Below, in pieces: positions 37,457 to 58,851 of a DNA stretch of 64,000 nucleotides (position 1 is its first letter; every line of letters starts with the position of its first letter). The stretch is from Burkholderiales bacterium (GTDB lineage Bacteria > Pseudomonadota > Gammaproteobacteria > Burkholderiales > SG8-39), in the NCBI GenBank assembly GCA_023383795.1, contig JAHDYJ010000004.1, forward strand, positions 22,603 through 86,602, in the 5' to 3' direction. The position numbers and the translations under genes were made by a program. Below the pieces are notes generated by a model. It saw nothing but the letters and a program-made list of their open reading frames with translations. It ran no database searches and was not told the origin of the DNA.

Positions 37457-39175
37457 TCACCCGCGGGTGCGCGGCTTCTCGCCGACGAGGCGCATGTCGC
37501 GCGGCTCGCGCAGCTTGAACTGCGCCGGCTCCTGGCGGACATTGACCAGGCCGGCTTCGGCCATGATGGCGCCGAGGCTCTGCGGCGTGTAGTTCCAGCG
37601 GTGGCACATGAGCGGGTCGCGCCAGGCGGGATCCCCGTAGAAGACCCACATCGTGCGCTGGCCCTCCTGTCCGGGACCTGCGCCGGCCACCGGGTTCCTG
37701 AGGAGCTCCTCGCACGCGGCGAGCAGATTCGGGCACTCGAGGATCATCCGGCCGCCTGGCTTCAGCACCCGCGCCCACTCCCGCAGGACGTCGACGACCT
37801 CCCACCGCCAGAAGTGCTCGACCACGTGCACCGCGAGCACCTCGTCCGCGCTGTCGGACTCGAACGGCGTCAGAGCGTGCAGGTCGCACAGCACGTCGGG
37901 CGACTTCCCGGCGCGACTCGCCGCGACGTCCACGTTGACGTAGCCGGGAAGGATCTTGTCGCCGCAGCCGAGGTTGAGCCGCACGACCGCCTCTCCGCCG
38001 GCCGCCGCAGCGGCGTCGCTCGGCTCGCCGCTCCCCGCGAGCAGACGCTCCCATTCGGCGGCGATCCGCTCCGGCGAGAAGCGGGCGGCGACGCGCTCCT
38101 GGCCGGCGCGAATCCGCGCGACCGCCTCGTCGGGATGGTCGAGCGCCCACGCGACGCCCGCGCCGAGGTCGTCCCCGACCCACGCGTAGTCGGCGAGCTC
38201 GAGGTACGACGGGATCGGCGAGGCGATCGCGATGCGCCCGCCGCGGATCGCCTCGACCAGGCGGTTGTGCGACTTCACGCGCCCCCAGCGCTCGCCGTGC
38301 TCCTGCGGCAGGATGACGAGATCGCAATCGTCGATCGCGCGCCAGGTCGCCTCGGGCGACCACGGCACGAACCGGGTGGCGAGCGACGGGTGCGCGCGAA
38401 GCAGCAGCTCCGCGAGGGCGGCGGCGAGCTCCCGCCGCGTCTCGTGCGTCACGAGCAGGAGCTCGGCGGCGCGGCCGCGCAGCCCGCCGGCCGCGCGCGC
38501 GAGACCCCGCGCGACCGATTCGAGGTTGGCCGTGCCGAGCTGGCCGAACCAGCAGAGCCGGGCCGGATCGCCGCGCGGGCCGCGCGGCGGGCGCGCCTGC
38601 GGGCTCTCGTACGGGTCCTCGATGACGTGGATGCCGCGCTTCGCGTACGGCGCGAGCTCCGCCCTCAACGCCTCGCATGCGACGGTCAGCACGCAGAGCT
38701 CGCCGAGCGCCGCCTGATAGCGCCCGAGGAACGGCTGGCCGGTCGCCTCGCCGATCGCGGCGTAGTTGTCCGAGAGATCGGCCACGAGCCTGATCCGTCC
38801 GCGCGCCCGGGCCAGCCACGCGAGCAGCGCTTCGAAGCGCTCCGGCGCGGCGAGCAGGTCCGCGGTGGAGAACTTCGTCACGACGAGGGTCTCGACCGGC
38901 GCGACCGCATCGAGCGCCGTGTCCGTAGCGAGGAGCTCCGGCGGCACCAGGTACACGGGTCGCGACTCGGCGAGGTGCAGCGCCGGCACGAACGCACGCA
39001 GCCGCACGCTCGCGAGCTCCGAGTAGAGCTCGGCCCCGGGGTCCACCCGGACCGGCTCGTCCACGTTCACCACGTACGCGAGCGCGCCCGGCTCGCGGCC
39101 GGCGGCCGCGGCGGGCTGCGCCGCCGGGCGGGCGGATCCCCCCTTGAGCAGCTGGGAAACGAAGCTTCGGAGCAT
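37457..39175 (-). CDS. Fusion protein: GT-B-like glycosyltransferase-type domain + C-terminal class I SAM methyltransferase
   Basis: C-terminus: LNLGCGDKILPGYVNVD...LAVHVVEHF...VLKPGGRMILECP. The N-terminal ~390 aa is paralogous to the 49395-50513 product (LCWFGQ.., CDLVILP.., ARFSPERIAAEWERLL). Confidence 0.75.
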   Translation of the reverse strand: MLRSFVSQLLKGGSARPAAQPAAAAGREPGALAYVVNVDEPVRVDPGAELYSELASVRLRAFVPALHLAESRPVYLVPPELLATDTALDAVAPVETLVVTKFSTADLLAAPERFEALLAWLARARGRIRLVADLSDNYAAIGEATGQPFLGRYQAALGELCVLTVACEALRAELAPYAKRGIHVIEDPYESPQARPPRGPRGDPARLCWFGQLGTANLESVARGLARAAGGLRGRAAELLLVTHETRRELAAALAELLLRAHPSLATRFVPWSPEATWRAIDDCDLVILPQEHGERWGRVKSHNRLVEAIRGGRIAIASPIPSYLELADYAWVGDDLGAGVAWALDHPDEAVARIRAGQERVAARFSPERIAAEWERLLAGSGEPSDAAAAAGGEAVVRLNLGCGDKILPGYVNVDVAASRAGKSPDVLCDLHALTPFESDSADEVLAVHVVEHFWRWEVVDVLREWARVLKPGGRMILECPNLLAACEELLRNPVAGAGPGQEGQRTMWVFYGDPAWRDPLMCHRWNYTPQSLGAIMAEAGLVNVRQEPAQFKLREPRDMRLVGEKPRTRG

Positions 39176-39278
39176 CTATCCGGCAACGCGTAGAGTGCCG
39201 CCCGCGTGAGCGCCCGCGGCATGATCATCGGAACCGATGTCGCTCCCGATGCGGGTGGAACCGGTGGACGTCGCGGAA

Positions 39279-40175: not shown

Positions 40176-40292
40176 CCGCGGATCTTAACCCCGGGCACGC
40201 GGTCGGCACAACGTTCCTCCCGCCGAAGCGTGAAAGGTTCCCTTAACAGCGCGCGACGCGCGCCGGATGTCCCTCCGCCCTCTGGCCGAGCC

Positions 40293-42233
40293 CTACCCGG
40301 CCGCGCGGACCACGCGCTCGATCCAGTCGGCCAGCGCCTCGACCGCCGCATCGGTCTCGAACAGTCGCGGGTGTGCGGCGCTGATCTTGGCGCGGTACGC
40401 GGCCCTGGCCGCCGGATCGCGGGCGAATGCGACCGCGAGCTCGACGAAGTGCTCCGGCGAGCGCGCGACACAGTCGGTGACGCCCGCCTGCCAGTACATG
40501 CCCGCCGTCATGCGGCCGCGGAAGAGCTCGCCGGGCAGCGTGACCAGCGGGACCCCGAGCGACATCACGACGTAGCTCGTCACGCCGCCCGAGAAGTGGA
40601 ACGTGTCGAGCACGCAATCGGCCGCGAGCAGAATGCTCAGGAACTCGGGCGTCGGCGCGAACGGCCGGAACGTGATGCGATCGGCGACGTCCGGCATGAC
40701 GCGCGCGAAGCGCGCCTCGAGCTGGCGCTGCCACACCGGGTGCGTCACGTCCGCGAACAGGACCACCTCGCCGTCCGGATCGCGGCGCAGAATGCCGGCG
40801 AGCGCGGCGTCGAAGTCCGGATGCATCTTCTGGAGCATCATCGGGCAGACGTAGTAGCGCACCTCGTCCAGCCAGCCGAGCGCCGCGCGCGAGAGCGGCT
40901 CGGCCGGAGGCACTGAGCGGGGGACGTAGACCGCGATTTTCGGCAACCGCACGAGCCGCTCGCTGTAGTGCGCCTGCGCGTGCTCGCCATCCTGGAACAC
41001 GTTGCTCAGGAAGTAGTCGATCGTGGGGATGCCCGACGTGCAGGGGTGGCCGATCAGCAGGGCCTGCACGGGCGCCAGACGGCTGAACGCCAGGAAGTAG
41101 AGGAAGGGGTGGAGGAAAAGGTCGGTGTAGATGAGGACGTCCGGCCGGCGCGCCTCGATGCACGGGCGCGCGGCCTCCAGCGTCTTTCCGAGGGGCACGA
41201 AAGCGCCGCGCTTCTCCGCGGCCGCCTTGAGTTCCGGATCCATAAAGCGATCGCCGTAGGCGAACAGGACCGTGTCGAACCGGTCCCGCTCGATCAGCAG
41301 GCGCACGAGGTTGCGATACCAGACGCCGACCGAGTGGCGACCCAGATAACCCGATACGATGCCGACGGTCGGCCTCTTCCCCGCCAGCGGCTCCCCGGCT
41401 GCGGCCTGTCGCGACGCATAGCGGAGCCCGGGCGACGCATAGCGGAGGCCGGGCGACGAGCGCAGCATGAGTTCGGCGACGCGCTCGTTCGTCGCGCGAT
41501 CGTTGTGCCCTTGGTACCCGAGGAAGAACGGCGTGTGATGGATCGCCGCCACCGGATCGGGAATCGAAGGCGGCTGCGCAAGCAGCCGGTCGAGCTCGCC
41601 CTCGAACCAGGCGCGCGCATCGGCAAGCGCGGCGCGCGACGCGCCGATCTGCGGCACCGTGTCGATCAGCCGGTTGACCTCGAGCGCGCCGCGCTCGGTC
41701 GCGGTTGCGAGCTCGAGCGCCCGGTCGAAGTAAGCGCGCGCCCCATCGATGTCGCCCAGACGGTATCCGACGAGCCCCAGCATCTCGAGCGGCGCTGCGG
41801 CGTGCGGCAACAGGCGGCGCGCGAGCTGCAGGCATGCCTCCGCCGGAATCGGTTCTTCTTCGTTGATATAGTGCACCCCGCGCGCGAAGAAGTGGAATCC
41901 GACGCCCCGCTCTATCGGACGCCCGGCATCCAACTGGCGCGCGGCGTCGAACGCCCCCTGCGCGGCGGCGTCGTCGCCGGCGCGCTCTAGAAACACGCCG
42001 TGCAGTGCGCTCGCCAGCGCGTCGTGCGGACGCCGGCGCCGCGCACGCTCCAACACCTCGGCGGCCCCCGCCGCATTCCGCGCGGCGTGAGCCTTGCGCA
42101 GGGCACCGACAAGCGCCGGATCGGCGTCCGGAGGCAGGTCGGCAAGCGGGACCAGCTCGACCGCTGGGGCGGAGCCGCCGGAAAAGGTGCGAAGCAATCT
42201 GAGCAGCATGGTGTCCGGGCGGGGAACGCCCAT
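40293..42233 (-). CDS. TPR + GT41 (SPINDLY/OGT-like) glycosyltransferase, paralogue 1 (alternative start 42209)
   Basis: TPR N-half. C-half has GT41-like blocks (VGIVSGYLGRHSVG, VLIYTDL, FSRLAPVQALLIGHPCTSG, LDTFHFSGGVTSY). The ATG at 42209 gives the island-typical N-terminus MLLRLLRTF. Confidence 0.8.
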   Translation of the reverse strand: MGVPRPDTMLLRLLRTFSGGSAPAVELVPLADLPPDADPALVGALRKAHAARNAAGAAEVLERARRRRPHDALASALHGVFLERAGDDAAAQGAFDAARQLDAGRPIERGVGFHFFARGVHYINEEEPIPAEACLQLARRLLPHAAAPLEMLGLVGYRLGDIDGARAYFDRALELATATERGALEVNRLIDTVPQIGASRAALADARAWFEGELDRLLAQPPSIPDPVAAIHHTPFFLGYQGHNDRATNERVAELMLRSSPGLRYASPGLRYASRQAAAGEPLAGKRPTVGIVSGYLGRHSVGVWYRNLVRLLIERDRFDTVLFAYGDRFMDPELKAAAEKRGAFVPLGKTLEAARPCIEARRPDVLIYTDLFLHPFLYFLAFSRLAPVQALLIGHPCTSGIPTIDYFLSNVFQDGEHAQAHYSERLVRLPKIAVYVPRSVPPAEPLSRAALGWLDEVRYYVCPMMLQKMHPDFDAALAGILRRDPDGEVVLFADVTHPVWQRQLEARFARVMPDVADRITFRPFAPTPEFLSILLAADCVLDTFHFSGGVTSYVVMSLGVPLVTLPGELFRGRMTAGMYWQAGVTDCVARSPEHFVELAVAFARDPAARAAYRAKISAAHPRLFETDAAVEALADWIERVVRAAG

Positions 42234-42418: not shown

Positions 42419-44518
42419 ATGCGTTCAGTAAGATCCCTGGCTCAACCGGCACGGAGACGAGGGCGCTGGCCGATGGGCTTGCTTGAGCGGGTTCGCCGCG
42501 CCCTTGAGCGCAGCGACGGGCAACCGGATCCAGCCCTGCTCGCGTACGTCGTCGCGCTCTACGAGAACGGGAGTATCGACGAGGCCGAAGCCGAATGCAC
42601 GCGCGTACTCGCCCGTCACCCGGGCAGCGCGCAGGCCCTGCACCTCCGCGGTCTCATCGCCGATCGGCGCGGCGACCGCCTGCGAGCGGAGCAGCTCATC
42701 GGATCGGCGGTCGCGGCGGCGCCCGGTGTCGGGCTCTACCGCTACAACCTCGGCAACGTGCAGCGCATGCTGGGCCGCGCCGACGCCGCGCTCGCCAGCT
42801 ATTCCCGGGCAGTGGAGCTCGAACCCGACCGCTTTGCCGCATGGTTCAATCTCGCGCAGTTGCATGCCGAGCAAGGCCGGCCGGCCCAGGCGATCGTCGC
42901 GTTCCGACAGGCGCGCCGGATCGATCCGGCGAGCGCCGAGGCCCGGTTGGGCCTCGCCGCGGCGCTCGTAGACGCTGCCCAGACCGGTGACGACGGGGCA
43001 TCCAGCTGTGCGGAAGCGCTCGCGCTGGTCGAGGGTTACTGGGCGCACGCCGCGGAGCCTTCGCGCGCACGCTTCGTTCTGGCGATGGCGCTGGCCGGCT
43101 GCGAGCGCTGGACCGAAGCCGCATCGCATCTCGAGGCGCTGGTTGCGGCGCATCCCGAGGCGGCCGAGTTGCGCAATCAGCTCGCCAACTGCTACAACCG
43201 CGTCGGCCGCGCGGCAGACGCCGTCGCGGAGTACCGCGAGACCTTCCGGCTCGCGCCCGATTTTCATCATGCGCTGACCGGCGTCCTCGGAACCCTGAAC
43301 GCCGTGGCCGAGGCGACCCCGGAGGAAGTGTTCGAGGCCCACCGCGCTTGGGCCGCCGCCGTTGCCGCACCGCTCTACCCGAGCGCGCCACGGTACCGGA
43401 ACACGCGCGATGCGCACCGCCGCCTGCGTATCGGCTATGTCTCGCCGGACCTGCGCCGCCATCCGGTCGGCGCGATGTTCGCGCCCGTGCTCGAACGCCA
43501 CGACCCCGCGCGCATGGAAACGTTCTGCTACTACAACTACCCGCGCGGGGACGTGATGACCGACCGCATGCGCCGCGCCGCGCATCACTGGCGCGACGTC
43601 TTCGGGCAGGACGACGCCGCCGTCGCAGAGGCGGTCCTGGCCGACGCGGTCGACATCCTGGTCGATCTCGTCGGACACACGCGGCACACCCGCCTCCCGG
43701 TCTTCGCGCGCAAGCCCGCGCCGGTCCAGGTCAGCTGGCTCGGGTACTTCAACACGACGGGGCTCGCGACGATGGACTATTTCGTCACCGACCCCGTCTC
43801 GTCTCCGCCGGGACAGGAGCGGTACTTCGTCGAGCGCCTGGTCCGTCTGCCCGCGACACGGTTCTGCTACGAGCCCCCCGAGTTCCTCCCTGCGGTGAGC
43901 GCGCTGCCGGCGCGCGCGCGCGGTCACATCACGTTCGGCTGCCTGAACAGTCTCGCCAAGCTGAACGACGGCGTGCTCGCGCTGTGGGCGCGGATTCTCG
44001 CCGCGGTCCCCGGCGCGCGCCTGTTGCTGCAGGCGTCCGCATTGAACGATCCGCTCGTGCAGCAGCGCTTGCGCGCGCGCGCCGAAGCGCACGGCATCGC
44101 CGCCGATCGGCTCGAGCTGCGCCGCTTCGTCCCCGTGGAGCAGGCGGGCCGCACGTACCACGACATCGACATCGCGCTCGATCCGTTCCCGTTCTGTGGC
44201 GGCATGACGAGCCTGGATGCCCTGTGGATGGGGGTGCCGGTGGTGACGCTGCCGCAGGCGATGATCGCCGGCCGTCAGACTGTGAGCATGCTCGCCAACC
44301 TCGATCTGCACGAGCTGGTCGCCGCGGACGCGGCGGCCTATGTGGCGATTGCCGTCGATCTCGCGCGCGATCTGGATCGCCTGGCAGCGCTGCGGGCGGG
44401 ACTGCGCGAGCGGTTCCGGCGCTCGCCCCTCGCCGACCACGACCGCTTCACCCGGGATCTCGAGGCTGCTTACGCCGGAATGTGGGCCGCATGGCTGGCG
44501 GCGCCACGCCAGGACTGA
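42419..44518 (+). CDS. TPR + GT41 (SPINDLY/OGT-like) glycosyltransferase, paralogue 2 (alternative start 42473)
   Basis: RIGYVSPDLRRHPVG, VDILVDLVGHT, FARKPAPVQVSWLGYFNTTG, FGCLNSLAKL and LDPFPFCGGMTS..LWMGVPVVT are canonical GT41 blocks following ~300 aa of TPR. Confidence 0.85.
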   Translation: MRSVRSLAQPARRRGRWPMGLLERVRRALERSDGQPDPALLAYVVALYENGSIDEAEAECTRVLARHPGSAQALHLRGLIADRRGDRLRAEQLIGSAVAAAPGVGLYRYNLGNVQRMLGRADAALASYSRAVELEPDRFAAWFNLAQLHAEQGRPAQAIVAFRQARRIDPASAEARLGLAAALVDAAQTGDDGASSCAEALALVEGYWAHAAEPSRARFVLAMALAGCERWTEAASHLEALVAAHPEAAELRNQLANCYNRVGRAADAVAEYRETFRLAPDFHHALTGVLGTLNAVAEATPEEVFEAHRAWAAAVAAPLYPSAPRYRNTRDAHRRLRIGYVSPDLRRHPVGAMFAPVLERHDPARMETFCYYNYPRGDVMTDRMRRAAHHWRDVFGQDDAAVAEAVLADAVDILVDLVGHTRHTRLPVFARKPAPVQVSWLGYFNTTGLATMDYFVTDPVSSPPGQERYFVERLVRLPATRFCYEPPEFLPAVSALPARARGHITFGCLNSLAKLNDGVLALWARILAAVPGARLLLQASALNDPLVQQRLRARAEAHGIAADRLELRRFVPVEQAGRTYHDIDIALDPFPFCGGMTSLDALWMGVPVVTLPQAMIAGRQTVSMLANLDLHELVAADAAAYVAIAVDLARDLDRLAALRAGLRERFRRSPLADHDRFTRDLEAAYAGMWAAWLAAPRQD

Positions 44519-45113: not shown

Positions 45114-46225
45114 GCGCCCCCCCCGGTGCCGCCGGCGATCGCCCGTCGCAGCATGCCGAACACGCGGCCCAGGTCGGCTCGCGTGAGCTCGAGATGGAAC
45201 GGCACGCCGAGTACGCGGCCCGACACCGCTTTTACGCCTTCCCTCGGCCCCGCCCTCTCCACCGCCGCAAACCCCGGGTGGTGCGACAGCGGCGGGCAGT
45301 ACCAGCGGCGCGACTGCACGCCGGCGCGCGCCAGCGCCTCGATCACCGCCACCGGCTCGACGGCCGCCGGCAGCAGCACCGGCGCGATCGTATACGCGCC
45401 GCCCACCGGCCGCGCCTGCGCGGTGACCGACGGGCACTGCTCGGGCATCAGCTCGAGGAAGGTGCGCCACTGCGCGCGTCGCGCCGCGGCGCGTTCCGGC
45501 CAGCGCTCCAGCGCGGCGAGCGCGACCGCCGCGTGATACTCGCTCAGCTTCGCGTTGGTGCCCGGCCGATCGACGATGCCGGTCGAGACATCGATGCCGA
45601 AATTGCTGAGCCGCCGGATGCGCTCGATCAGCGCGGCGTCGCGCGACACCACGAAGCCGCCCTCGCCGGCGCCGAGCGCCTTCGTGGCGTGCAGGCTGAA
45701 CGCGACGTGCGCGCGCCGCCCGGCACGCTGGTTGCCGAACGCTCCGGCCGCATCGATCACGACCGGCAGTCCGGTCTCGCCGCTGAACCGGTCCCAGGCT
45801 TCCGCGTCCTGTGGGCAGCCGAACGTCGCCACCGGCATCACCGCGTCCACCGGGCGCTCGGCGATCGCCCGCCGGGCGATTTCGGGCGTGAGGAGCCAGC
45901 TCTGCGGGTCGACGTCGGCGACCACCGGTCGGCAGCCGCTGCGCATGACCGCGGTAGCGGTCGCGACGAACGTGAAATCGGGAAGCAGAACGCGCGCCCC
46001 GTCGGGCAGGCCAAGCGCCTGCAGCGCGAGTTCGAGCGCCGCGGTGCCGCTCGCGAGCGTCGCAACGCGATCGTCGGCGGCGAAGTGCGCGCCCAGCCGC
46101 TCCTCGAGCTCGCGCACGAGGGGTCCGAAGTTCGTGTACCACCGCGCCGCGTCGACCCGGGCAAGATACGGCGCGAGCGCCGCCGCGGGCGGCATGTCCG
46201 GAACGAGCAGCTTGATCTCGTTCAT
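45101..46225 (-). CDS. DegT/DnrJ/EryC1/StrS-family PLP-dependent sugar aminotransferase
   Basis: MNEIKLLVPDM.., ASGTAALELAL, and FSLHATKALGAGEGG (PLP lysine). The ATG overlaps the stop of the upstream GT41 gene (ATGA). Confidence 0.9.
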   Translation of the reverse strand: MNEIKLLVPDMPPAAALAPYLARVDAARWYTNFGPLVRELEERLGAHFAADDRVATLASGTAALELALQALGLPDGARVLLPDFTFVATATAVMRSGCRPVVADVDPQSWLLTPEIARRAIAERPVDAVMPVATFGCPQDAEAWDRFSGETGLPVVIDAAGAFGNQRAGRRAHVAFSLHATKALGAGEGGFVVSRDAALIERIRRLSNFGIDVSTGIVDRPGTNAKLSEYHAAVALAALERWPERAAARRAQWRTFLELMPEQCPSVTAQARPVGGAYTIAPVLLPAAVEPVAVIEALARAGVQSRRWYCPPLSHHPGFAAVERAGPREGVKAVSGRVLGVPFHLELTRADLGRVFGMLRRAIAGGTGGGAWRS

Positions 46226-49394: not shown

Positions 49395-50513
49395 ATGCGG
49401 ATCATCTGGATCAGCGATACGGCGCCCGCGGGCCTCACGACCGACGCGGAATATTTCGCGGGTCACCGCCTGGCGTCGATGCGCTTTCGCATCGGCGCGC
49501 CGGCGCGCGCGCTCGCGCGGCTCGGCGTCGAGAGCGCCTTCGTCGGTCTCGATACGCCGGCCGTGCTCGAGCACCTGGCGCCCGGGTGCGTCGACGCGGT
49601 GGTGTTCTCCAAGCTGTCCACGCCGCGCGGCCCGACCTACGATGCGTTCACGACCGCCTACCTGGGCACTGCGGATCATGCGCGCGCGCACGGGCTGGCC
49701 GTCGTCGTCGACCTGGTCGACAACGTATTCGCGACCGAGCGGAGCGACTTCTTCGTCGAGCTGCTGGCCCGCGCCGACGCGGTGACTGCCGGCACCGAGC
49801 CGCTCGCCAGGATCTGCCGGCAACACGCGCGGTCGCCGGTGCACGTGGTGGCCGATCCGGTCGAGGGCGATCGGCGCCCGCCGTGTTTCGCGCCGCCGGG
49901 CGCAGGCTTGCTGCGGCGCCTCGGGCTGGCGCGCTCCGCGCCGCCGCTCCGCTTGCTGTGGTTCGGCGGGCAGTACCGCAACTTTCTCGCCCTCGCCGCG
50001 CTCTTCCCGGCACTCGGCGATCTCGCCGCCGAGCGACCCCTCGACCTCGTCGCCGTCATGAACCGCGACGACCGCCTCACGCGCGACTTGGAGGCGCTGT
50101 GCGACCGCGCGCCCGGGCGCATCACGGCGCGCTTCGCCGAGTGGTCGCCCGCGGCCATGGCCGGAGAGCTCGAGCGCTGCCATCTCGTGGTGCTGCCGGC
50201 GGATGCGCACGACGAGATGCGCGCGGTGGCCGGCGCGAACCGCCCGGCGCGCGCGCTGTGGGCCGGGCGGGCGGTGGTCGCGCATCCGCTGCCGGGCTAC
50301 GACGAGCTCCGCGACGCCGCGCTGCTCGACGCCGATCCGGTCGGCGCGATCCGCTGGGCGCTCGCGCACCCCGCCGAGGTGGCGCAGCGGATCGGGCTCG
50401 GCCAGCGGATCGTCGCTGCGCGCTATAGCCCGGAGGCGATCGGCCGCCGCTGGCTCGAAGTGCTCGAGTCGGTCGCGCCGTCCGCCCCCGGCGGGACCGC
50501 ATCACGCTCCTGA
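49395..50513 (+). CDS. GT-B-fold glycosyltransferase-like protein (paralogue of N-domain of 37457-39175)
   Basis: MRIIWISD... Shared blocks LLWFGGQ, CHLVVLPAD, ARYSPEAIGRRWLEVL with the other GT-B-like domain. The family assignment is tentative. Confidence 0.6.
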   Translation: MRIIWISDTAPAGLTTDAEYFAGHRLASMRFRIGAPARALARLGVESAFVGLDTPAVLEHLAPGCVDAVVFSKLSTPRGPTYDAFTTAYLGTADHARAHGLAVVVDLVDNVFATERSDFFVELLARADAVTAGTEPLARICRQHARSPVHVVADPVEGDRRPPCFAPPGAGLLRRLGLARSAPPLRLLWFGGQYRNFLALAALFPALGDLAAERPLDLVAVMNRDDRLTRDLEALCDRAPGRITARFAEWSPAAMAGELERCHLVVLPADAHDEMRAVAGANRPARALWAGRAVVAHPLPGYDELRDAALLDADPVGAIRWALAHPAEVAQRIGLGQRIVAARYSPEAIGRRWLEVLESVAPSAPGGTASRS

Positions 50514-50552: not shown

Positions 50553-52166
50553 CTACGGGCGCGACGTCGATGCGCAGGCGCGACGCCACATGTCGCGATA
50601 GGCGTCCTCGAGATCGCGCAGGAACCCGGGCGCGTCCATCAGCGGCGAGGCCTGCATCCTCGCCCGCAGGCCGCGCTGGAGTGCGCGCAACCGTTGCCGG
50701 TCGTTCGCGAGGGCCGCAGCGATCTCCAGGTATTGCGCGTCGGACTCGGCCACGAGCTCGCGCAACCCGACGTTGCCGAGGATCGACGCGCCGGAGCGGG
50801 CAAAGCCGAGGGCACCCGCCCGGGTGACGACGGGCACGCCGAGATACAGGCACTCGCAGGTTGTCGCGCCGCCGTTGTACGGAAAGGGGTCGAGCGCGAT
50901 GTCGGCGCGACGAATGGTCTGCCAGTAATCCGCCCGCAGCTGGCGCGGCAGCGTGATCACCCGCGACTCGGCGATGCCGCGCTCGCGAAACGGCGCCAGC
51001 AGCGCGGCACGCGCCTCGTCGCTCGGCACGTCCAGGATCCAAAGCTCCGAACGCGGGACGCGCTCGAGCAGTCGCGCCCACAGGCTTACAAGGTCCGGGT
51101 GGATCTTCGTCAGGCGGTTGAAGCTGCCGAAGACGACTGGGGCGTCGTTCGGTTCCGGACGCATCGCGGGCGCGGGCATGTCCGCCCACGGCGCGAAGCA
51201 CCAGAGCGTGCGCGGCAGCCGGGCCAGCCGCTCGGTGTGGAAGGCGTCCGCCGTGCCGGGCGGATCGGCCAGCGCGTCGGTGACACGATAGTCGAACGCG
51301 CGGCTTCCGGTCGTGCCGAGGTACCCGAGATAGCTCACCTGGACCGGCGCAGGCCTGCGCGCGAGCGCGAGCGTCCGACCGCCGCGCGTGAGTCCCGCGA
51401 GATCGACCAGGATGTCCACGCGATGATCGAGGATCGCGTGCGCCAAGGCTTCGTCGGAGGTGCCGCTCACGTCGTACCAGGCGTCGGCGAGCGCGCGCCA
51501 GCGCTGCGTGCGCGCGTCCTCCTTTCCGATCGTCTGATAGCACAGCACCTCGAACGCCGCCCGGTCGCGGTGTGCAAGCAGGGGTTCGATGAAGAAGGCC
51601 ACCGCGTGGTCGCGGAAGTCGCCGGAGATGTAGCCGATCCGCAGCCGGCGCTCCGGATCGGCCAGGCGCGACCGCGGAATCTCGAGGTGCGGCACCGGAT
51701 CGAGGAACCGCGCGGCCACCGCCCGGTGCTCGGCATGGAGCTGCTCGGGCGTCACCGTCGGATCCTGGTTCAGGACGAAGAGGACGTCGGCGGCGCGGAC
51801 GAAGGAGTCCGGCTCGAGCGCCGCGGCCCGCCGCGCCGCCGCGAGCGCCGCATCATAGCGTCCGAGCGCGAGCAGCGCCCCGGCGCGGTTCGCGTGCAGG
51901 CCGGCCACATGTCCGCCGCGCCGCAGCGCCTCGTTGAAGTAGTCGAGCGCCGTGTCGAACTGGAGACGGCGCATGTAGAGGTGCCCGAGCATGCCGAGCG
52001 CGTCGGGACATGCTGGGTCGAGCGTGAGCACCTCCAGGAGCGCCGCCTCGGCCTCGGCATAGCGGTCTTCGCGCAGCGCCGCGAGGCCGCGCTCCAGCAG
52101 CTCGGTCACGCGCGCGTCCGCGCCCCGCCCGGGGCGACCGAGACCGCGAAGCAGGGCCTTGAGCAT
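50553..52166 (-). CDS. TPR + GT41 (SPINDLY/OGT-like) glycosyltransferase, paralogue 4
   Basis: Start at MLKALLRGLGRPGRG. RIGYISGDFRDHAVAFF, VDILVDLAGLT, LARRPAPVQVSYLGYLGTTG, FGSFNRLTKI, LDPFPYNGGATTCE.LYLGVPVVT. Confidence 0.85.
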   Translation of the reverse strand: MLKALLRGLGRPGRGADARVTELLERGLAALREDRYAEAEAALLEVLTLDPACPDALGMLGHLYMRRLQFDTALDYFNEALRRGGHVAGLHANRAGALLALGRYDAALAAARRAAALEPDSFVRAADVLFVLNQDPTVTPEQLHAEHRAVAARFLDPVPHLEIPRSRLADPERRLRIGYISGDFRDHAVAFFIEPLLAHRDRAAFEVLCYQTIGKEDARTQRWRALADAWYDVSGTSDEALAHAILDHRVDILVDLAGLTRGGRTLALARRPAPVQVSYLGYLGTTGSRAFDYRVTDALADPPGTADAFHTERLARLPRTLWCFAPWADMPAPAMRPEPNDAPVVFGSFNRLTKIHPDLVSLWARLLERVPRSELWILDVPSDEARAALLAPFRERGIAESRVITLPRQLRADYWQTIRRADIALDPFPYNGGATTCECLYLGVPVVTRAGALGFARSGASILGNVGLRELVAESDAQYLEIAAALANDRQRLRALQRGLRARMQASPLMDAPGFLRDLEDAYRDMWRRACASTSRP

Positions 52167-53806
52167 CACCGCGAAGCGGGCTCTGCGCCCGCGGCGCGCG
52201 CGCAGGCTTCTCGCCACACGCTGCGGTAAGCGGCTTCGAGATTGCGCATGAAGCGCGGCGCGTCGAGCAACGGCGACGCACGGAGCCGGTCGCGCATTCC
52301 GTGCTGCAACGCGCGCAGGCGTGGTCGATCGAAAGCAAGCGTCGCGGCGATCTCCAGGTACTGCTCGTCGTTCTCGGCCACGAACTCGCGCATGCCGACG
52401 GCTTCCAGGATCGAGGCGCCCGAGCGCGCGAAGCCCATTGCGCCCGCCCTGGTCACGACGGGCACCCCGAGCCACAGGCACTCGCAAGTCGTCGCGCCGC
52501 CGTTGTACGGGAAGGTGTCGAGTGCGATGTCCGCGCGGCGAATCAAGTCCCAGTACGGCTGCGGCGGCAGCCGGCCCCAGGTCCGGATCCGCTCCGCGGC
52601 CACGCCGGCGACGGCGAGGGCGGCGACGAGCCGTTCATGGCTCTCGTCGCTCGGGACGTCGGCGAACCAGAGCTCGGAGTCGGGTACGCGCGCGAGCAGG
52701 CGCCCCCACAACCGCAGCATGTCCGGCTGCACCTTGGCGAGGCGGTTGAAGGAGCCGAATACGATCGGCGCCCCTGCATCGCCGCCGCGCGGCGCCGGCG
52801 CGGGCATCGCGCCGCGCGGACTGAAGCACCATTGCGTTTCCGGCAGGCGGACGAGCCGCTCGCTGTACCACCGGTCCGTATCGCCCGGCGGGTCGGCGCG
52901 GGCGTCGGTGACCCGGTAGTCGATGGCATCGATCCCGGTCGTCGCGAGATAACCGAGGTAGCTCATCTGCACCGGCGCCGGCTTTCTCGCGATCACGTGC
53001 ACGCGGTTGCCGTCGGTCAGGCCCGCGAGGTCCACCAGGATGTCGATCTCGTCCGCCTGGATCAGGGCGGCGAGTTCCTCGTCGGACAGTTTCGCCACGG
53101 AGTGCCAGCGGTCGGCAGCCGCGCGCAGTTCCGCCGTCCGCTCGTCTTCATCGTCGACGGTGTGGTAGCAGAACGCCGCGAACGCGTCCCGGTCCCGTGC
53201 AGCGAGGAGCGGCTCGATGAAGTAGGCGACCGCGTGCGCGCGGAAATCGCCCGAGAGGTAGCCGATGCGGAGCCGTCGCTCGGGGTCGGCCAGGCGCTCG
53301 GCTCCGATCGGCAGCCGCCGAGCGCCGCTCAGCACGCGCTCCATGCACGCGCGGTGTTCGGCCAGCAGCTGCTCGGGCGCCGTTTCGGCCTGCTGGCTCA
53401 GATGGAACAGGAGGGAGGTGTTGAACCGCAGCCCTCGCGGGTCGAGCGCAAGGGCCTTGCGGTAGGCCGCCTCGGCCTCTCGATTTCGCCCAAGCGCCTG
53501 CAGCGCCATCCCGAGGTTGCGGTGGAAGTCCGCTACGGGCAGGTCCCCGCGCAGCGCCTCGCGGAAGTAGTCGAGCGCGGTGTCGTAATGCATGCGCCCG
53601 TAGGCGAGGAGGCCGAGCAGGTTGAGCGCGTCCGGGTTGCGGGGCTCGAGCCTGAGCGCCTCGAGAAAGCACCGCTCTGCCTCCGCGCTGCGCTTTGCCC
53701 GCGCGTGCTCGACGCCCGCTTCCAGGGCAGCACGCACGTCCGCTGCGAGCGCTGCCGGATCGCGCCGCCGCGCGCCCAGCAGGCCGGCGACGAGGCCCTT
53801 CAGCAT
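52166..53806 (-). CDS. TPR + GT41 (SPINDLY/OGT-like) glycosyltransferase, paralogue 5
   Basis: MLKGLVAGLLGARRR... Colinear with paralogue 4, with well over half of positions identical by eye. Its stop overlaps the paralogue 4 start (TGATG). Confidence 0.85.
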   Translation of the reverse strand: MLKGLVAGLLGARRRDPAALAADVRAALEAGVEHARAKRSAEAERCFLEALRLEPRNPDALNLLGLLAYGRMHYDTALDYFREALRGDLPVADFHRNLGMALQALGRNREAEAAYRKALALDPRGLRFNTSLLFHLSQQAETAPEQLLAEHRACMERVLSGARRLPIGAERLADPERRLRIGYLSGDFRAHAVAYFIEPLLAARDRDAFAAFCYHTVDDEDERTAELRAAADRWHSVAKLSDEELAALIQADEIDILVDLAGLTDGNRVHVIARKPAPVQMSYLGYLATTGIDAIDYRVTDARADPPGDTDRWYSERLVRLPETQWCFSPRGAMPAPAPRGGDAGAPIVFGSFNRLAKVQPDMLRLWGRLLARVPDSELWFADVPSDESHERLVAALAVAGVAAERIRTWGRLPPQPYWDLIRRADIALDTFPYNGGATTCECLWLGVPVVTRAGAMGFARSGASILEAVGMREFVAENDEQYLEIAATLAFDRPRLRALQHGMRDRLRASPLLDAPRFMRNLEAAYRSVWREACARAAGAEPASR

Positions 53807-53918: not shown

Positions 53919-54332
53919 TTACCGGCAGGAACCCGGCATGTAGCGCGACGGGGTGCCCGTGCAGCTCCAGGTCAGCGTGCCCGCCGACGTGTTCACGGTG
54001 GGCGTCAGCACCACAGTGACGGCGGTGCCGACGCTCGTCGGCGCGCTGGAGCCCGTAATCGTGACCACGCCGGTGTTGGCGACGGTCGCGCCCAGGATCT
54101 TGCCGAAGGCGACGATCGACGTTCCGCTGCCCATGTTGGCCGAGTCCTGGTCGGCCTGGTACTTCTCGGTGATCGCCGTGCGCGCAGCGCTCGCCGCCAG
54201 GATCAGCTCCGAGACCTTCGAGCGGATCGTGTAGTCCTGATACGCCGGCAGCGCGATCGCCGCCAGGATGCCGATGATCGCGACCACGATCATCAGCTCG
54301 ATCAGGGTGAAACCCTTTTGAATTGCCTTCAT
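53919..54332 (-). CDS. pilA: Type IVa major pilin
   Basis: Class III leader [35 protein letters not shown]-terminal disulfide loop [20 protein letters not shown] Shine-Dalgarno sequence. Confidence 0.95.
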
Positions 54333-54386
54333 TCACTTCTCCTCTACGGTTGATTGCGAGAACTCTGACCCGCCGACCCCGTAGGA

Positions 54387-54401: not shown

Positions 54402-54574
54402 TCGTCAAGGCGAGCATCGGGTGGTATTTAATGCATTGATTTATAAGCTCATTTTTTCGCGCCCCCGGGCCCGGCGGCTGGAACCGTGAACTATGCCGCG
54501 GCGCTGTCCGGCCGCGGCACTCCTGCGAAGTGACGTGCAGCGTCAGTTCCTGACCCATCTTTGCCGGGCTGCGC

Positions 54575-56389
54575 TCAGATGCGTCTGGCAGCCGCCCGGA
54601 CGAGCGCGGTCCAGTCGCCTCCCGCCGTCTGGCGCAGCAGCTCGACCGACGGGTACCACGGCATGCGGTCGCCTGCGCGCAGGTAGCGCCACTCGGGCGC
54701 CGCCGGTACCAGCGCGATCACTCGGGCGCCAAGCGCCCCCCCTAGATGGACGACGGAGCTGCACACGGTCACCACGGCGTCCAGTGCGCCGATCAATGCG
54801 GCAGTCTCCTCCGGATGCGACGCTGCCTCCGGCCAGTGCGCGACGGGCTTGCCGGCGACGGCCTGCAATCGCGCGAGCTCCTCGCCGGTGGCGCGATGTT
54901 GCAGGCTCACGAACGCGAGGTCGGTGCGACCGACGAGCGGCGCGAGATCCTCGGGAGAGAGCGAGCGCGTTCGCTGGCGCGTGCGCATCAGTCCGCCGCG
55001 CCAGGCGATACCGATCTTGCGCCCCGATCCCAGCGTGGCGAGGCGGGACCGATACTCGTGCACGCGCGCCGGATCGGCCGCGAGATAGCTGCGGCGCGCG
55101 GGAAAGTCCGCGGCGCCGCGCCGGTAGCGGCGCGGCAGGCTGCCGGCGGCAATCTGGACGTCGATCGCGCCGGCACCCGCGAGCCAGGCGTGGTCCCAGG
55201 TCCGCGGCGCGCCGCAGACCGCGGCGGTCGGAAAGGCGCGCCGGAAGAGGCTCTCGAGCCGGGGGTCGCACTCGACCACGACGGCGCGCGCCTCGGCGAT
55301 CAGGTCCGGCAGGCAGCTCGCAAACATGATCTCGTCGCCGAGTCCTTGCTCCGCATAGACCAGCACGGTCTTGCCGGCCGCCGGCTCGGCGCCGAGCTCC
55401 GGTTGCGGAAACCCGCGCCGCGGCGACTCGCCCGAATCGAACCGACCCTCGTAATCTTCCCACCCGCCGGCGAAATCGCCGAGCGCGAGCCGCAGCAGCG
55501 CCCGGCCCAGACGGGCATCGCCGGATCCCGGCGCGAGCGCGAGCGCCGCGTCGTACTCGGCACGCGCGCCGGAGGTATCGCCGAGATCCGCGAGCGCCGC
55601 GGCGAGCGCGCTGCGCGCGGCGACCTCCGCAGGGCGCTGTGCGACGAGCGCCGCCACCGCATCACGCGCCTCTGCGGCCATGCCGAGCTCACGCAGCACG
55701 ATCGCGCGGTGGGTCAGCGTCGTCGCATCGCCGGGCGCCAGCGCCATCGCCCGGTCGAGCTCGCGCAGCGCGTCGGCGTGCCGATCGAGCCCGCGCAGGC
55801 ACATCGCCAGGCGATTGAGCGGCTCCGCCCGCTCCGCTTCGAGCGCCGCCGCGCGGGCAAAATGCGTCGCGGCCTCGTCGAGCCGTCCCAGCTCCTGCAG
55901 TGCGATGCCAGAGTTCAAGTGTGCCGCAGCGTGGTCAGGATCACGCTTGAGAACCCACCGCAGCACATCGATCGCCTCCTGCGGGCGGCCGAGCTCGGCG
56001 AGCGCGCCGGCGAGCTCGCTGCGCGCCGGAAGGCTCGCCGGGTTGATCTCGATCGCCCGGCACAGCGCGTGCGAGGCCTCCAGCGCGGCGCCGCGGCGGC
56101 GCAGCGCCTGGCCGAGCAGCTCGTGCGCGTGCGCGTCGTCCGGCCGCGCCTGCAGCATCTCGCGCATCAGCGCCTCGGCGCCCGCATTGTCGCCGCGCTC
56201 GAGGCAGATTTCGGCGAGGAGGTAGCCCGCGGCCGGACGCTCCGGCGCGGCCCGCATCACGTGCCGCGCGAGTTCTGCCGCGCGATCGAGATCGCCTCTT
56301 CCGCGCGCCGCGGCCGCAGCGTCGAGCAGCCGGTCGGTCTCGCTCGGCCGCGCGCGGCCGGCGAGCCGCGAGATCAGGACGCGCAGCAT
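54575..56389 (-). CDS. TPR + GT9 (heptosyltransferase-family) glycosyltransferase, paralogue 1
   Basis: ~330 aa of TPR, then GKTVLVYAEQGLGDEIMFASCLP...VTVCSSVVHLGGALG, typical of the GT9 family. Confidence 0.8.
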   Translation of the reverse strand: MLRVLISRLAGRARPSETDRLLDAAAAARGRGDLDRAAELARHVMRAAPERPAAGYLLAEICLERGDNAGAEALMREMLQARPDDAHAHELLGQALRRRGAALEASHALCRAIEINPASLPARSELAGALAELGRPQEAIDVLRWVLKRDPDHAAAHLNSGIALQELGRLDEAATHFARAAALEAERAEPLNRLAMCLRGLDRHADALRELDRAMALAPGDATTLTHRAIVLRELGMAAEARDAVAALVAQRPAEVAARSALAAALADLGDTSGARAEYDAALALAPGSGDARLGRALLRLALGDFAGGWEDYEGRFDSGESPRRGFPQPELGAEPAAGKTVLVYAEQGLGDEIMFASCLPDLIAEARAVVVECDPRLESLFRRAFPTAAVCGAPRTWDHAWLAGAGAIDVQIAAGSLPRRYRRGAADFPARRSYLAADPARVHEYRSRLATLGSGRKIGIAWRGGLMRTRQRTRSLSPEDLAPLVGRTDLAFVSLQHRATGEELARLQAVAGKPVAHWPEAASHPEETAALIGALDAVVTVCSSVVHLGGALGARVIALVPAAPEWRYLRAGDRMPWYPSVELLRQTAGGDWTALVRAAARRI

Positions 56390-56437
56390 TCGGCGCCGTG
56401 CGAGCGCGCCGCGGCTCGCGGCCGGCGATCGGGTTCC

Positions 56438-57121
56438 CTACGCCGGCGCACGCTGGGTGCACGCAAGCATGCGCTCGAGCTCCTGCCGCCACTCCTCGGC
56501 GTACTCGCAGTCGCGGTACTCCTGGAAGTAAGGCCCGCCGAGCGTGTAGTGTACGAGCGAGACGTCGCGGCTCGGGGCGTAGTAGCCGACCAGGTGGTTC
56601 CAGCGCCGCGGCAGCTCGCCGATCAGGCTCTCGCTTTTCAGCCACTTGAACTGGTGCAGCTCGAGTCCGGACGCGCGGTTGACGTACTCCGGCGTGAGCG
56701 CGGTGCAGCGCGAGTTGTTGAACAGCATCACGCTCGACCAGTTCTTCTTGGGGTACTGGGTCTGCGGCTGGTCGAGGAACTTGATCGTCTCGCGCGGCTG
56801 GTGGTCGTGCTTCACCACCATGACCGCGTACCGGTCGTCGCGCAGCCGCCACAGGTTCGCGATGTCGTCCAGGACCAGCATGTCGCAGTCGGTGAAGATG
56901 CTCCATCCCTCGTAGCCCGACAGGTGCGGGACGAGGAAACGCGTGAAGGCGAAATCGGTCGACTGCAGCGGGTGGCGCTCGCGCGAGAAGACGCCGCGCA
57001 GCGCGGAGAGCACGAGCGGCGTAATGCTGACCGGCTCGCTCGCGCGCACGTGCATGCTGTGCGCGAGGACGCTGAATGCCACTGCCTCGCGCGGATCGTA
57101 TCCGATGAAAACGTTGATCAT
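56438..57121 (-). CDS. GT8-like nucleotide-sugar glycosyltransferase
   Basis: 227 aa. MINVFIGYDPRE...TRFLVP...IFTDCDMLVLDDI (DxD) is a GT-A fold. The family assignment is from motif memory only. Confidence 0.65.
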   Translation of the reverse strand: MINVFIGYDPREAVAFSVLAHSMHVRASEPVSITPLVLSALRGVFSRERHPLQSTDFAFTRFLVPHLSGYEGWSIFTDCDMLVLDDIANLWRLRDDRYAVMVVKHDHQPRETIKFLDQPQTQYPKKNWSSVMLFNNSRCTALTPEYVNRASGLELHQFKWLKSESLIGELPRRWNHLVGYYAPSRDVSLVHYTLGGPYFQEYRDCEYAEEWRQELERMLACTQRAPA

Positions 57122-57213
57122 GCGGTGTCCCGGTGCAGTGGCACGATAATATCAAGCCGCCCGCGCATCGCGCACGCGCGGCCGCCGGCGCACGTGCCTT
57201 TTTGCCGCATGTG

Positions 57214-58851
57214 CTAACCCCGGTGCCCGCTGCGGAGCGCAGCGAGCTCGCGCCGCACCGCGTCGACGACCGGGCTCCAGTCCGCGCTCGCGGCCTGGCG
57301 CAGCAGGCGCACGGACGGATACCACGGCATGCGCTCGCCCGCCGCGCCGTAGCGCCACTCCGGCGCGCGCGGCGTCATCACCCACACCGGACGCCCGAGG
57401 GCGCCGCCGAGGTGGACGATCGCGGTGCAGACCGAGACGATGCCGTCGAGCGCGGTCGCCAGCGCGGCGGTCTCGTCGTAGTCGTCGATGGCCTCGGGCC
57501 AGTGATGCATGCGGATTCCGCTGGCCGACGCGAATCCCGCGGCCTCGGCGGCGGCCTCGGGCCCGTACTGCAGGCTCACGAAATGGAACCCGAGCTCGCG
57601 CAGCAGTGGCTCGAGCACCCCGAGCGTGAGCGAGCGGCGCTCGGTGCGCGTGCGTGCGGTCCCACCGCGCCACGAGACGCCGATGGCGCGGCCCGGACCG
57701 AGTGCGGCCAGGCGCTCGCGCCAGCGGCCGACCTTTGCCGGATCGGCGCGCAGGTAGCCCTGGTGCGCCGGGAACGCCGTCGGCGCATTGCGGAGGTAGA
57801 GCGGCAAGCTCCCGGCCGGCACCTGCACGTCGATGCCGAGCGGCAGTGTCCAATCGACCGGATCGGCCTGGTGTCCGGCATGCACCGTCGCGGGCGGGAA
57901 CGAGCGGACGAAGAGCGGCGCGAGCTTCGGAGAGCAGTCGATCACGCAGTGCCGCGCCGCACCGACGATCTCCGGCAGGCAGGATGCAAAGAGGATCTCG
58001 TCGCCGATGCCCTGCTCGGCGTGCACGAGGATGGTCTTGCCGGCGAGGGGCTCGCCGTTCCAGCGCGGAAACGGAAACGCCCGCTGCGGACGGTCCTCGG
58101 AGCGCAGCCGCAGCTCGTAGTCCGGCCACGCCTCGGCGAAGCGGCCGGCGGTGAGCAGCGCGATCGCGCGGTGGAAGCACGCGCCGACGTGCTGCGGGTC
58201 GCGCGAGCGCGCGGCATCGTAGGCGGCGAGAGCGTCCTCGAGCCGCCCGAGCTCCTGCAGCGCGGCGCCGTAAGCCGTGAGCGTGTCGGGATCGCGCTCG
58301 CCGAGCGACACCGCGCGCTCGAGGGCGGCGAGCGCCGGCGCCGCATCGAACGCGCCGCGCATGTGAAGCCGGCCGAGCGCCGCGAGCGCGACCGCGTGAT
58401 CCGGGAAGCGCTCGACGACCGAGCGCAGCAGCGCGATGTCCTCGTGGGGCACGGCGTCGTCCGGCAGCCAGTCGACGAGCCCCCGGATCGCCGCCGACGA
58501 GCTCGGATCGGCGCGCACCGCGCGCCGGAAGCACTCGAGCGCGGAGGGTCGATCGTCCCGTCGCGCGTGCAGCAAGCCGAGGTTCGCCAGCGCCGAGGCG
58601 TGGTCCGGTGCCAGCGCGATCGCCGCGGCGTAGCTGCGTTCGGCCGCCGATTCCTCGCCGAGCAGGACGAGGACGTTCCCGAGATCGGAGTGCGTGTCGG
58701 CCGAATCCGGCGCGAGCGCGAGCGCGCGCTCGAGCAGCGCCCGCGCCCGCGGCGCGTCTCCGCCGCCCGCCGCGCGCCATGCGCCCTCCCGCAGCGCGCG
58801 GGGGTCCTCGGCGCCACGGGGTCGCACGCGCTTCAGCAGGTCGCGCAGCAC
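57214..58851 (-). CDS. TPR + GT9 (heptosyltransferase-family) glycosyltransferase, paralogue 2 (track ORF extends to 58929)
   Basis: GKTILVHAEQGIGDEILFASCLP...VSVCTAIVHLGGALG. The GTG at 58851 (GGGGGA upstream) gives the N-terminus (M)LRDLLKRVRPRG, matching the island motif. Confidence 0.8.
   Translation of the reverse strand: MLRDLLKRVRPRGAEDPRALREGAWRAAGGGDAPRARALLERALALAPDSADTHSDLGNVLVLLGEESAAERSYAAAIALAPDHASALANLGLLHARRDDRPSALECFRRAVRADPSSSAAIRGLVDWLPDDAVPHEDIALLRSVVERFPDHAVALAALGRLHMRGAFDAAPALAALERAVSLGERDPDTLTAYGAALQELGRLEDALAAYDAARSRDPQHVGACFHRAIALLTAGRFAEAWPDYELRLRSEDRPQRAFPFPRWNGEPLAGKTILVHAEQGIGDEILFASCLPEIVGAARHCVIDCSPKLAPLFVRSFPPATVHAGHQADPVDWTLPLGIDVQVPAGSLPLYLRNAPTAFPAHQGYLRADPAKVGRWRERLAALGPGRAIGVSWRGGTARTRTERRSLTLGVLEPLLRELGFHFVSLQYGPEAAAEAAGFASASGIRMHHWPEAIDDYDETAALATALDGIVSVCTAIVHLGGALGRPVWVMTPRAPEWRYGAAGERMPWYPSVRLLRQAASADWSPVVDAVRRELAALRSGHRG

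Follow-up and report, generated by a model that had tools for sequence, protein, structure and literature searches.

What brings the same short peptide to the front of ten enzymes whose catalytic domains are largely unrelated, and what could such a peptide be for? The question is raised by an island of glycosyl- and methyltransferase genes around a type IV pilin gene in a stretch of 64,000 nucleotides from a Burkholderiales bacterium (the window; C201:22603-86602 of a draft, 4.9-Mb genome with a G+C content (GC) of 71%), for which a preliminary description had reported ten predicted N-termini resembling one another. All ten were found in the sequence, and the shared peptide, which we call the tag, is real and not an artefact of composition. 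We read it, with a probability of roughly 0.5, as an amphipathic helix of the SecA/MreB type that gathers the enzymes at the cytoplasmic face of the membrane. The ten genes, numbered g1 to g10 and given in window coordinates, are:

37457..39175, minus strand: g1, a fusion of a GT-B-fold glycosyltransferase (Foldseek) and an MT11 methyltransferase (Pfam), no TPR; tag MLRSFVSQLLKGG at 39137-39175, minus strand, then a linker of about 20 residues
39279..40175, minus strand: g2, one TPR and an MT24 methyltransferase (Pfam); tag MLGNLLRVFLPSR at 40137-40175, minus strand
40293..42209, minus strand: g3, TPR and a divergent GT41 (Pfam GT41); tag MLLRLLRTFSGGS at 42171-42209, minus strand
42473..44518, plus strand: g4, TPR and GT41 (Pfam); N-terminus MGLLERVRRALER at 42473-42511, plus strand, a weak or variant form of the tag in which acidic residues occur
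46222..47880, minus strand: g5, TPR and GT41 (Pfam); tag shifted by two residues, MA-LIGRLLGGLRSR, at 47839-47880, minus strand
48194..49327, plus strand: g6, TPR and GT2_5 (Pfam); tag MLGRLLAALTGRR at 48194-48232, plus strand
50553..52166, minus strand: g7, a short-TPR, SPINDLY-like GT41 (Pfam); tag MLKALLRGLGRPG at 52128-52166, minus strand
52166..53806, minus strand: g8, a short-TPR, SPINDLY-like GT41 (Pfam, Foldseek); tag MLKGLVAGLLGAR at 53768-53806, minus strand
54575..56389, minus strand: g9, long TPR (Pfam) and a tentatively GT9-like domain (match below threshold); tag MLRVLISRLAGRA at 56351-56389, minus strand
57214..58851, minus strand: g10, long TPR and a tentatively GT9-like domain (match below threshold); tag (GTG start) LRDLLKRVRPRG at 58813-58851, minus strand

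In brief, the tag reads M-L-[KRGS]-x-[LF]-[LVF]-x-x-[LVFW]-[FL]…R followed by a variable Pro/Ala-rich linker and, position by position, M1-L2-[K/R/G/S]3-x4-[L/F]5-[L/V/F]6-[K/R/A/S]7-[S/N/G]8-[L/V/F/W]9-[F/L/R]10-x-x-R13. Positions 1, 2, 5, 6, 9 and usually 10 make up a hydrophobic helix face, flanked by Lys/Arg at 3, 7 and 13-15 and with small polar residues elsewhere, and the Pro/Ala/Ser/Arg-rich linker of 3-25 residues is predicted to be disordered. The motif is offset by two residues in g5 (MA-LIGRLLGGL), and g4, with acidic residues and a poor fit to the motif (MGLLERVRRALE), appears from its sequence to be no more than a weak member.

The proteome is rich in Leu, Arg, Gly and Ala, and N-termini with many Leu, Arg and Gly residues might resemble one another by composition alone, or by shared ancestry of recent paralogues such as the pairs g7/g8, g9/g10 and g4/g5. 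Genes were called with a purpose-built simple codon-usage caller that is blind to the motif (4,508 genes, 89% genome coverage), and its starts agree with those of the preliminary description in 8 of the 10 genes, being off by 8 codons in g3 and by 1 codon in g7. A 12-position matrix from the ten peptides gave them leave-one-out scores of 1.4-10.1; applied in full (not leave-one-out) to the 4,492 other proteins, a setting that favours the null, it scored 43 at 2 or above and 11 at 4 or above. A foreign matrix, built only from homologue N-termini in other genomes, picked by a loose regular expression from two families (short-TPR GT41 and MT24), placed g8, g2, g10, SecA, g6, g1 and g9, in this order, at the top of all 4,508 proteins. 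Four of these (g10, g6, g1, g9) belong to families outside the training set, and SecA (MLQRALKAVFGSRNDR) is the sole non-island protein among the seven. Because the preliminary description had chosen among start codons, every gene was also given free choice of any start (16,961 starts): a score of at least 5 was reached by 8 of the 16 island genes as against 7 of the 4,492 others (Fisher p ~2e-17), with the matrix trained elsewhere. The motif is thus far from equally frequent in unrelated proteins, the outcome that the preliminary description had named as fatal to its proposal. Shared ancestry, for its part, leaves unexplained a tag on catalytic families without a common domain.

The tag is also not a general property of TPR proteins or of GT41 enzymes, a possibility ruled out by three untagged sets: 18 non-island TPR proteins of the genome, which all score -8.8 or lower; its only non-island TPR-GT41 (C191), in whose N-terminal region no tag was found; and the long-TPR GT41 homologues P0083-P0120, which show TPR sequence from the start. 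GT41 loci of many phyla, 80 in all with 1.27 Mb and 20,078 candidate starts, yield no more than 8 starts that score 6 or above, five of them from two proteobacterial metagenome-assembled genomes (MAGs), with four in one syntenic Burkholderiales pilin island. The C191 gene itself (C191:3600-5850, minus strand) contains an assembly gap (a run of N), and the reading frame seems to change from one side of it to the other.

The similarity lies at the protein level; the upstream DNA is unrelated and the Leu codons differ: the 60 nt upstream of the tagged genes are 20-40% identical, which is the random level, different Leu codons are used among paralogues, and in orthologues the codons of the conserved Leu residues have often changed synonymously. 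The same figures rule out a DNA repeat or common regulatory element at the 5' ends. A feature of the mRNA or of codon usage was likewise rejected, the GC content at third codon positions (GC3) of codons 2-13 being unremarkable (0.83 vs a genome mean of 0.886).

Comparison with other genomes shows that orthologues of at least three of the families keep the tag while the linker drifts, and that deeper homologues are without it. The orthologues of g7 and g8 (P0001-P0082, 50-98% identity, about 540 aa) are tagged, with N-termini of the forms MLKGLLxxVFGAR, MLKALLRSLR, MLRTLFRSLRP or MLSRLLSGWTGRRRR; the first form is found in the g8 orthologues P0001-P0044, the second and third in the g7 orthologues P0047-P0064. 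In 90 of 120 homologues of g2 among the matches listed, the motif begins either at Met1 or at a Met further inside, and a variable Pro/Ala linker follows (MLGNLLKxLW, MLRSLLKNVFAARPAP and similar), and the internal Met in over-extended entries points to the true start. Orthologues of g1 (P0242-P0309) begin ML[RK]x[LF][LVF] down to about 52% identity and continue with a variable linker of 15-35 residues, whereas in distant g1 homologues, about 545 aa long, the protein opens with the first beta-strand, and tag and linker are both absent. In the g6 family, sampled as representatives at 50% identity, the tag is present on some of the closest single-TPR proteins (e.g., VLGSLLRSVFAK, MLARLLKSLLPD, MLKNLFTQLAG) and absent from the rest. 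The two-residue shift of g5 is retained in its same-genus orthologues (MPLIGRLLSGLW, MPILGRLLNGLR; also MPLIGRLLSGLWRG, MPILGRLLNGLRRG), and g9 orthologues begin MLRELILRLAGH and MLRNLIRSLAGR.

For three families, homologue N-termini were picked by a loose regular expression, which retained 67 of 82, 80 of 86 and 53 of 69 sequences, and column entropies were 1.4-1.6 bits in the tag, 2.1-2.7 bits in the linker and 0.8-1.3 bits in the domains. Acidic residues are not among the common residues at positions 1-15 of these families, and Trp or Phe is frequent at positions 9-10 of orthologues. Most listed homologue N-termini begin with ML; Met1-Leu2 is invariant in the motif-selected sets, whose selection pattern itself required ML. 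A tag that persists to about 50% identity while the adjoining linker drifts is again not what chance would produce.

Syntenic islands on the long metagenomic contigs L001 and L002/L003 share with the window the ATPase, the HD-GYP gene, the small open reading frame (ORF), the TPR/GT9-like genes, the GT8-like gene, the pilin(s) and two GT41s, among others. The orthologues of g2, g3, g7, g8, g9 and g10 are tagged there, and those of g4 have the variant N-terminus of g4. The same layout recurs in L004 (Burkholderiales MAG26, 9821-21433), at 58-65% GC, with at least seven tandem TPR enzyme genes; six N-termini are of the ML or VL form (MLKxLL, MLARML, VLKGLL) and one is MKMLFKSLL, and Lys is used where the present genome uses Arg. 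This persistence at lower GC, with Lys for Arg, removes the explanation by GC composition, and together with the controls above it leaves chance or recent ancestry hardly credible as the source of the motif. Further examples from L004 are MLKGLLSGLL, MLKNLLKKLM, MLKRLIRQLAG and MLKRLLRQLLG; its TPR genes stand head-to-tail downstream of two pilin genes, most of them joined by overlapping stop and start codons. These comparisons across genomes show that tagging occurs generally in this clade.

The preliminary description had asked whether the motif is restricted to TPR-transferases, and here the answer is negative. In the window g1 has no TPR, and outside it, at C155:14609-15284 (minus strand), a 224-aa MT11-like methyltransferase, also TPR-less, carries the tag and a Pro/Ala linker (MLGRLFGSGKAATQGAAQARPDAPA). 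To judge by its sequence, the latter looks like an eleventh tagged enzyme that was relocated from the island; its homologue in the L002 pilin island (20258-20866) has neither tag nor linker. Conversely, the second TPR/GT9-like paralogue of the related islands (L001 4484-6145; L002 4466-6082) is untagged, and tagging is therefore not universal within the system. The tag behaves as a conserved, separable N-terminal module, with orthologues tagged, linkers drifting and deeper homologues untagged, and this agrees with the proposed shared address peptide; it is not a feature of TPR proteins as such.

Orthologue N-termini also bear on where the genes begin, and they back the shorter starts that had been argued for at 42209 (g3), 42473 (g4) and 58851 (g10, GTG). 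For g3 the orthologues MLLKLLRSLARP (L002) and MLLRLLRSFTRS (L001) begin MLLKLLRSL or have non-conserved extensions, and 42209 is probably the start in preference to 42233. The g4 orthologue in L001 begins MGLVDRIRGAF, the g10 orthologues begin with ATG at MLRHLLSRMTSRG (MLRHLL) and MLRALLNRVRAGG (MLRALL), and the g7 start at 52166 is backed by orthologues with MLKALL and MLRTLF. In many public gene calls for tagged enzymes (P0129, P0162, P0174, P0197, P0202, P0264 and others) the start lies 10-40 codons before the conserved ML. Automatic callers lengthen or shorten these genes in a GC-rich genome; the tag settles their start codons here, and could be used to correct systematic over-extension in GC-rich MAGs more widely.

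The domains behind the tag are diverse, and the earlier count of at least five catalytic families stands: GT41, GT2_5, MT24, MT11 with a GT-B fold, and a GT9-like group, the last from a sub-threshold match only. The GT41 domain (PF13844) is recognised in g3, g4, g5, g7 and g8 with 60-188 bits (Pfam; cut-off 25). The AlphaFold2 (AF2) model of g8, with a predicted local distance difference test score (pLDDT) of 89.8, superimposes on Arabidopsis SPY with a template modelling (TM) score of 0.86, and g8 is 37% identical to the Thermobaculum OGT (Foldseek). The fold of g1 is nearest to SenB, GlgM, SdgB and BshA, i.e., GT-B/GT4-like (Foldseek). For g9 and g10 the PF01075 (GT9) matches of 16.5 and 10.8 bits lie below the cut-off of 22 (E 0.0056 for g9), the label 'GT9-like' is tentative, and a sequence search of the PDB with the catalytic half of g9, the only half searched, gave no relative. 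These two catalytic halves (54575-55480 and 57214-58050, minus strand) and a 372-aa protein of the island are effectively uncharacterised.

Predictions of structure and physical character agree in describing the tag as strongly amphipathic, basic, helical and placed with low confidence. In hydrophobic moment, none of the ten peptides falls below the 93.7th percentile of the N-termini of the proteome (Mann-Whitney p 1e-7), which bears out the amphipathic character proposed earlier, and 8 of 10 exceed at least 95% of their own shuffles. Net charge over residues 1-16 is +1 to +4, and eight of the ten have no acidic residue at positions 1-12. The Wimley-White interfacial sums of 8 of the 10 peptides are -1.7 to +0.8 kcal/mol, compared with a proteome median of +2.05 and with +0.45 for the SecA of this genome. 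A generic 'basic amphipathic' filter is passed by 75 of the 4,492 other N-termini. In the AF2 models (alignments of 47-49 sequences) the helix has pLDDT below 50 in both g8 and g1. In g8 it spans residues 2-13, with residues 1-11 scoring below 50 and a break at 14-16; in g1 it spans 2-10, a disordered linker at 11-27 (again below 50) comes next, and the domain is folded from residue 31 on. Both models are otherwise confident (pLDDT 87-90).

From these models the tag would be a tethered, separable helix outside the enzyme fold. The helix could instead belong to its own protein, as an intramolecular cap, an autoinhibitory lid or an aid to folding, solubility or translation initiation, inherited with the proteins and serving no targeting. 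It does directly precede the first TPR helix in most of the TPR enzymes, and some distant MT24 homologues seem to extend it into a longer segment (e.g., MLRRVLADSLFLHAI). Against such a role, g1 and the C155 methyltransferase are TPR-less and have 17-20 residues of disordered linker between tag and domain; moreover, linker length and sequence vary freely, the helix is positioned with low confidence, and the synonymous codon variation, unrelated upstream DNA and ordinary GC3 already described speak against a role in the mRNA. We consider an intramolecular role improbable.

The membrane anchor that we favour would work as follows. The helix of each tag would settle into the interfacial region of the cytoplasmic membrane, on the side of its anionic inner leaflet, and such anchoring would concentrate the SPINDLY-like GT41s, the TPR/GT9-like enzymes, the GT2, the methyltransferases and the GT-B/MT fusion in two dimensions. 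The anchored enzymes could then act sequentially on one substrate close to the membrane, while it is being inserted or beforehand; the Ser/Thr-rich pilin is the most plausible one, and a common anchor would fit either a membrane-held prepilin or a lipid-linked intermediate. Membrane binding, co-localisation and the pilin as substrate are what we infer from the properties above. Comparable short helices are used by MreB, FtsY, MinD and FtsA. The closest likeness is to the N-terminal helix of SecA, an experimentally established anchor to anionic lipids whose Lys/Arg residues contact those lipids, which partitions into the interface and whose role artificial tethering can take over (bioRxiv 10.1101/2021.03.26.437172).

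Several points weigh against the membrane anchor. Both g4 and g10 have acidic residues and unfavourable interfacial energies (g4 +4.8), and a helix of about 2.5-3 turns would bind weakly as a single copy, with avidity from oligomers needed. Helices with an i, i+3/4, i+7 hydrophobic pattern suit protein grooves as well as lipids. Positions L2 and L5 hardly vary, Ile, Val or Phe being seldom found there, and a generic lipid anchor would not call for such strictness. Low pLDDT is common at protein termini and is no proof of a free helix. Finally, the globular domain of a type IV pilin ends in the periplasm, and the access of cytoplasmic enzymes to it is unexplained.

The strictness of L2 and L5 across unrelated enzyme families might be better served by one common protein receptor than by lipid, with the tag as a docking peptide. 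One tag on many enzymes resembles the logic of encapsulation and targeting peptides, TPR domains are peptide receptors and stand on most of the tagged enzymes, and docking could recruit the TPR-less tagged enzymes, g1 and the C155 methyltransferase. Candidate receptors are the TPR grooves of sibling enzymes (in head-to-tail assemblies), a component of the type IV pilus platform, the neighbouring GAF-PilB-like ATPase, the 115-aa ORF, which is unannotated and syntenic in all related islands examined, and, given the resemblance of the tag to the SecA N-terminus, the docking sites of SecA at the translocon or ribosome. Against a receptor, AF2 does not place the helix on the enzyme's own TPR, and positions on the polar face vary freely (K, R, S, G, N, A), which is atypical of a specific interface. 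Docking to a protein, the chief rival of the membrane anchor, seems possible, if on the unlikely side. The resemblance to SecA can be taken further: as a specific address label that mimics the SecA N-terminus, the tag might recruit the cytoplasmic glycosyl- and methyltransferases to the Sec/signal recognition particle (SRP) translocon, to the exit region of the ribosome or to the platform of the type IV pilus, where prepilin would be decorated co-translocationally from the inside while its globular domain has yet to cross the membrane. This is speculative and rather doubtful; if true, pilin would be glycosylated here by another route than in the known periplasmic en-bloc systems (PilO/PglL, TfpW).

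The same peptide invites comparison with other known systems. The encapsulation peptides of bacterial microcompartments (BMCs; PduP, PduD, EutC) are N-terminal amphipathic helices of about 15-18 residues with a poorly conserved linker, carried by functionally linked but unrelated enzymes. The architecture and co-localising logic of the island tag are the same, but it is shorter and strongly basic; a BMC peptide was ruled out, the whole genome being without a PF00936 match for a shell gene while control genomes matched. A Sec or Tat signal peptide, for which an unbroken hydrophobic stretch of at least about 8 residues behind a basic n-region, a cleavage site and, for Tat, a preceding twin-Arg motif would be expected, was rejected as well. 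Here no more than 2-3 residues separate one charged or polar interruption of the hydrophobic positions from the next, and the linker that follows is polar and rich in Pro, Ala and Arg; in the AF2 models of g8 and g1 no further hydrophobic helix lies between tag and domain. The PilM-binding peptide of PilN has an INLLP motif (Asn-Leu-Leu-Pro core) followed by a transmembrane segment, and this identity was discarded since the tag has neither a conserved Asn/Pro flanking its Leu-Leu nor a transmembrane segment next to it.

With residues 1-25 of E. coli SecA the tag shares the extreme N-terminal position, the ML start, the pattern ML-x-[KR]-x-L-x-K-x-[VF]-F-G-x-R, the basic polar side and a hydrophobic moment of about 0.4-0.5, and the genome's own SecA is the best non-island match of the foreign matrix. 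The SecA helix, however, leads directly into the motor domain, and SecA is activated for SecYEG when it binds lipid, whereas the island tag sits on a variable disordered linker and is common to about ten unrelated transferases, with no homology beyond the peptide. The N-terminal helix of Gram-negative MreB and the C-terminal membrane-targeting sequences of MinD and FtsA reportedly tether soluble proteins to the inner leaflet. These are likewise short amphipathic helices (9-12 residues), sometimes on a flexible linker; they belong to single cytoskeletal or division proteins that gain avidity by polymerisation, unlike the island, where one type of tag marks a whole enzyme set.

The enzymes themselves have parallels in the Ogt of Synechococcus elongatus, a cytoplasmic GT41 required for PilA glycosylation (PMC9306852), in Caulobacter FlmG, with TPR and GT, for flagellin (PMC7591256), and in Arabidopsis SPINDLY, with which they share the TPR arm joined to a GT domain, cytoplasmic action and genetic linkage to a filament subunit. 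In the literature searched we found no report of an N-terminal amphipathic tag on Ogt, FlmG or SPINDLY, nor of a conserved tag on a whole set of cytoplasmic enzymes that modify proteins and are encoded in islands with a pilin gene. The principles, an amphipathic membrane anchor and a targeting peptide common to several proteins, are known; the new element is a tag across the whole enzyme battery of a pilin island. Protein glycosylation inside bacterial cells by OGT/SPINDLY-like and TPR-guided enzymes is poorly understood, its cellular site included. A conserved, transferable tag of about 12 residues on at least six catalytic families of pilin-linked islands provides a cheap experimental handle on the membrane organisation of these pilin-island enzymes, bears on how cytoplasmic enzymes modify a protein that mostly ends in the periplasm, and serves as a sequence signature for further members of the system such as the C155 methyltransferase.

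The presumed substrate lies in the middle of the island. The region 37.4-58.9 kb holds 16 called genes, of which six stand beside g1-g10:

53919..54332, minus strand: pilA, a type IVa pilin, mid-island (Pfam Pilin and N_methyl)
44541-45113, minus strand: hexapeptide acetyltransferase, untagged (Pfam)
45101-46225, minus strand: DegT aminotransferase, untagged (Pfam)
49395..50513, plus strand: 372-aa protein, untagged, N-terminus MRIIWISD, no family match; described earlier as GT-B-like
56438..57121, minus strand: GT8-like protein, untagged (weak Pfam GT8 match)
58970-59317, plus strand: 115-aa ORF (MGLFSLFSNKEVTAFAKDLAAGLAKRYPP...) at the island edge

The pilA product has 29% Ser+Thr after residue 35, and pilin genes occupy the same position in L001, L002 and L004. 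No flippase, initiating phosphoglycosyltransferase or oligosaccharyltransferase is found among the island genes, and most of the enzymes have protein-binding TPR arms; direct protein glycosylation is for these two reasons the likelier chemistry.

Inspection of the N-termini of the DegT, acetyltransferase, GT8-like and 372-aa proteins agrees with the earlier remark that these accessory enzymes are without the motif. The GT8-like protein begins MINVFIGYDP, an N-terminus that is kept in L001 and L002. Neither the 372-aa protein (49395-50513) nor the 115-aa ORF has a Pfam or NCBIfam match. The 115-aa ORF is conserved in L001 and L002, where it again has the GAF-HD-GYP gene on one side and the first gene for a TPR enzyme on the other, and it is a possible partner or scaffold. 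Outside the island stand this GAF-HD-GYP gene and a gene for a GAF-MshEN-PilB-like ATPase (Pfam). The genome also has sox, apr/sat and hdr genes, and in the databases it stands closest to uncultured MAGs of Burkholderiales and Betaproteobacteria.

The related islands differ from the window in a few further respects. They hold an enzyme with TPR and GT61 domains (L001 13335-14624; L002 13254-14546) that is not present in the window and has the variant N-terminus MKLGRI[IL]xDAARR[AT]LR. The pilins of the window, L001, L002 and L004 are highly similar, with 25-29% Ser+Thr after residue 35 and conserved blocks that include VGTAVTV.LTP and a C-terminal Cys...Cys loop, and they occur as two tandem copies in L002 and L004 and as one copy in the window.

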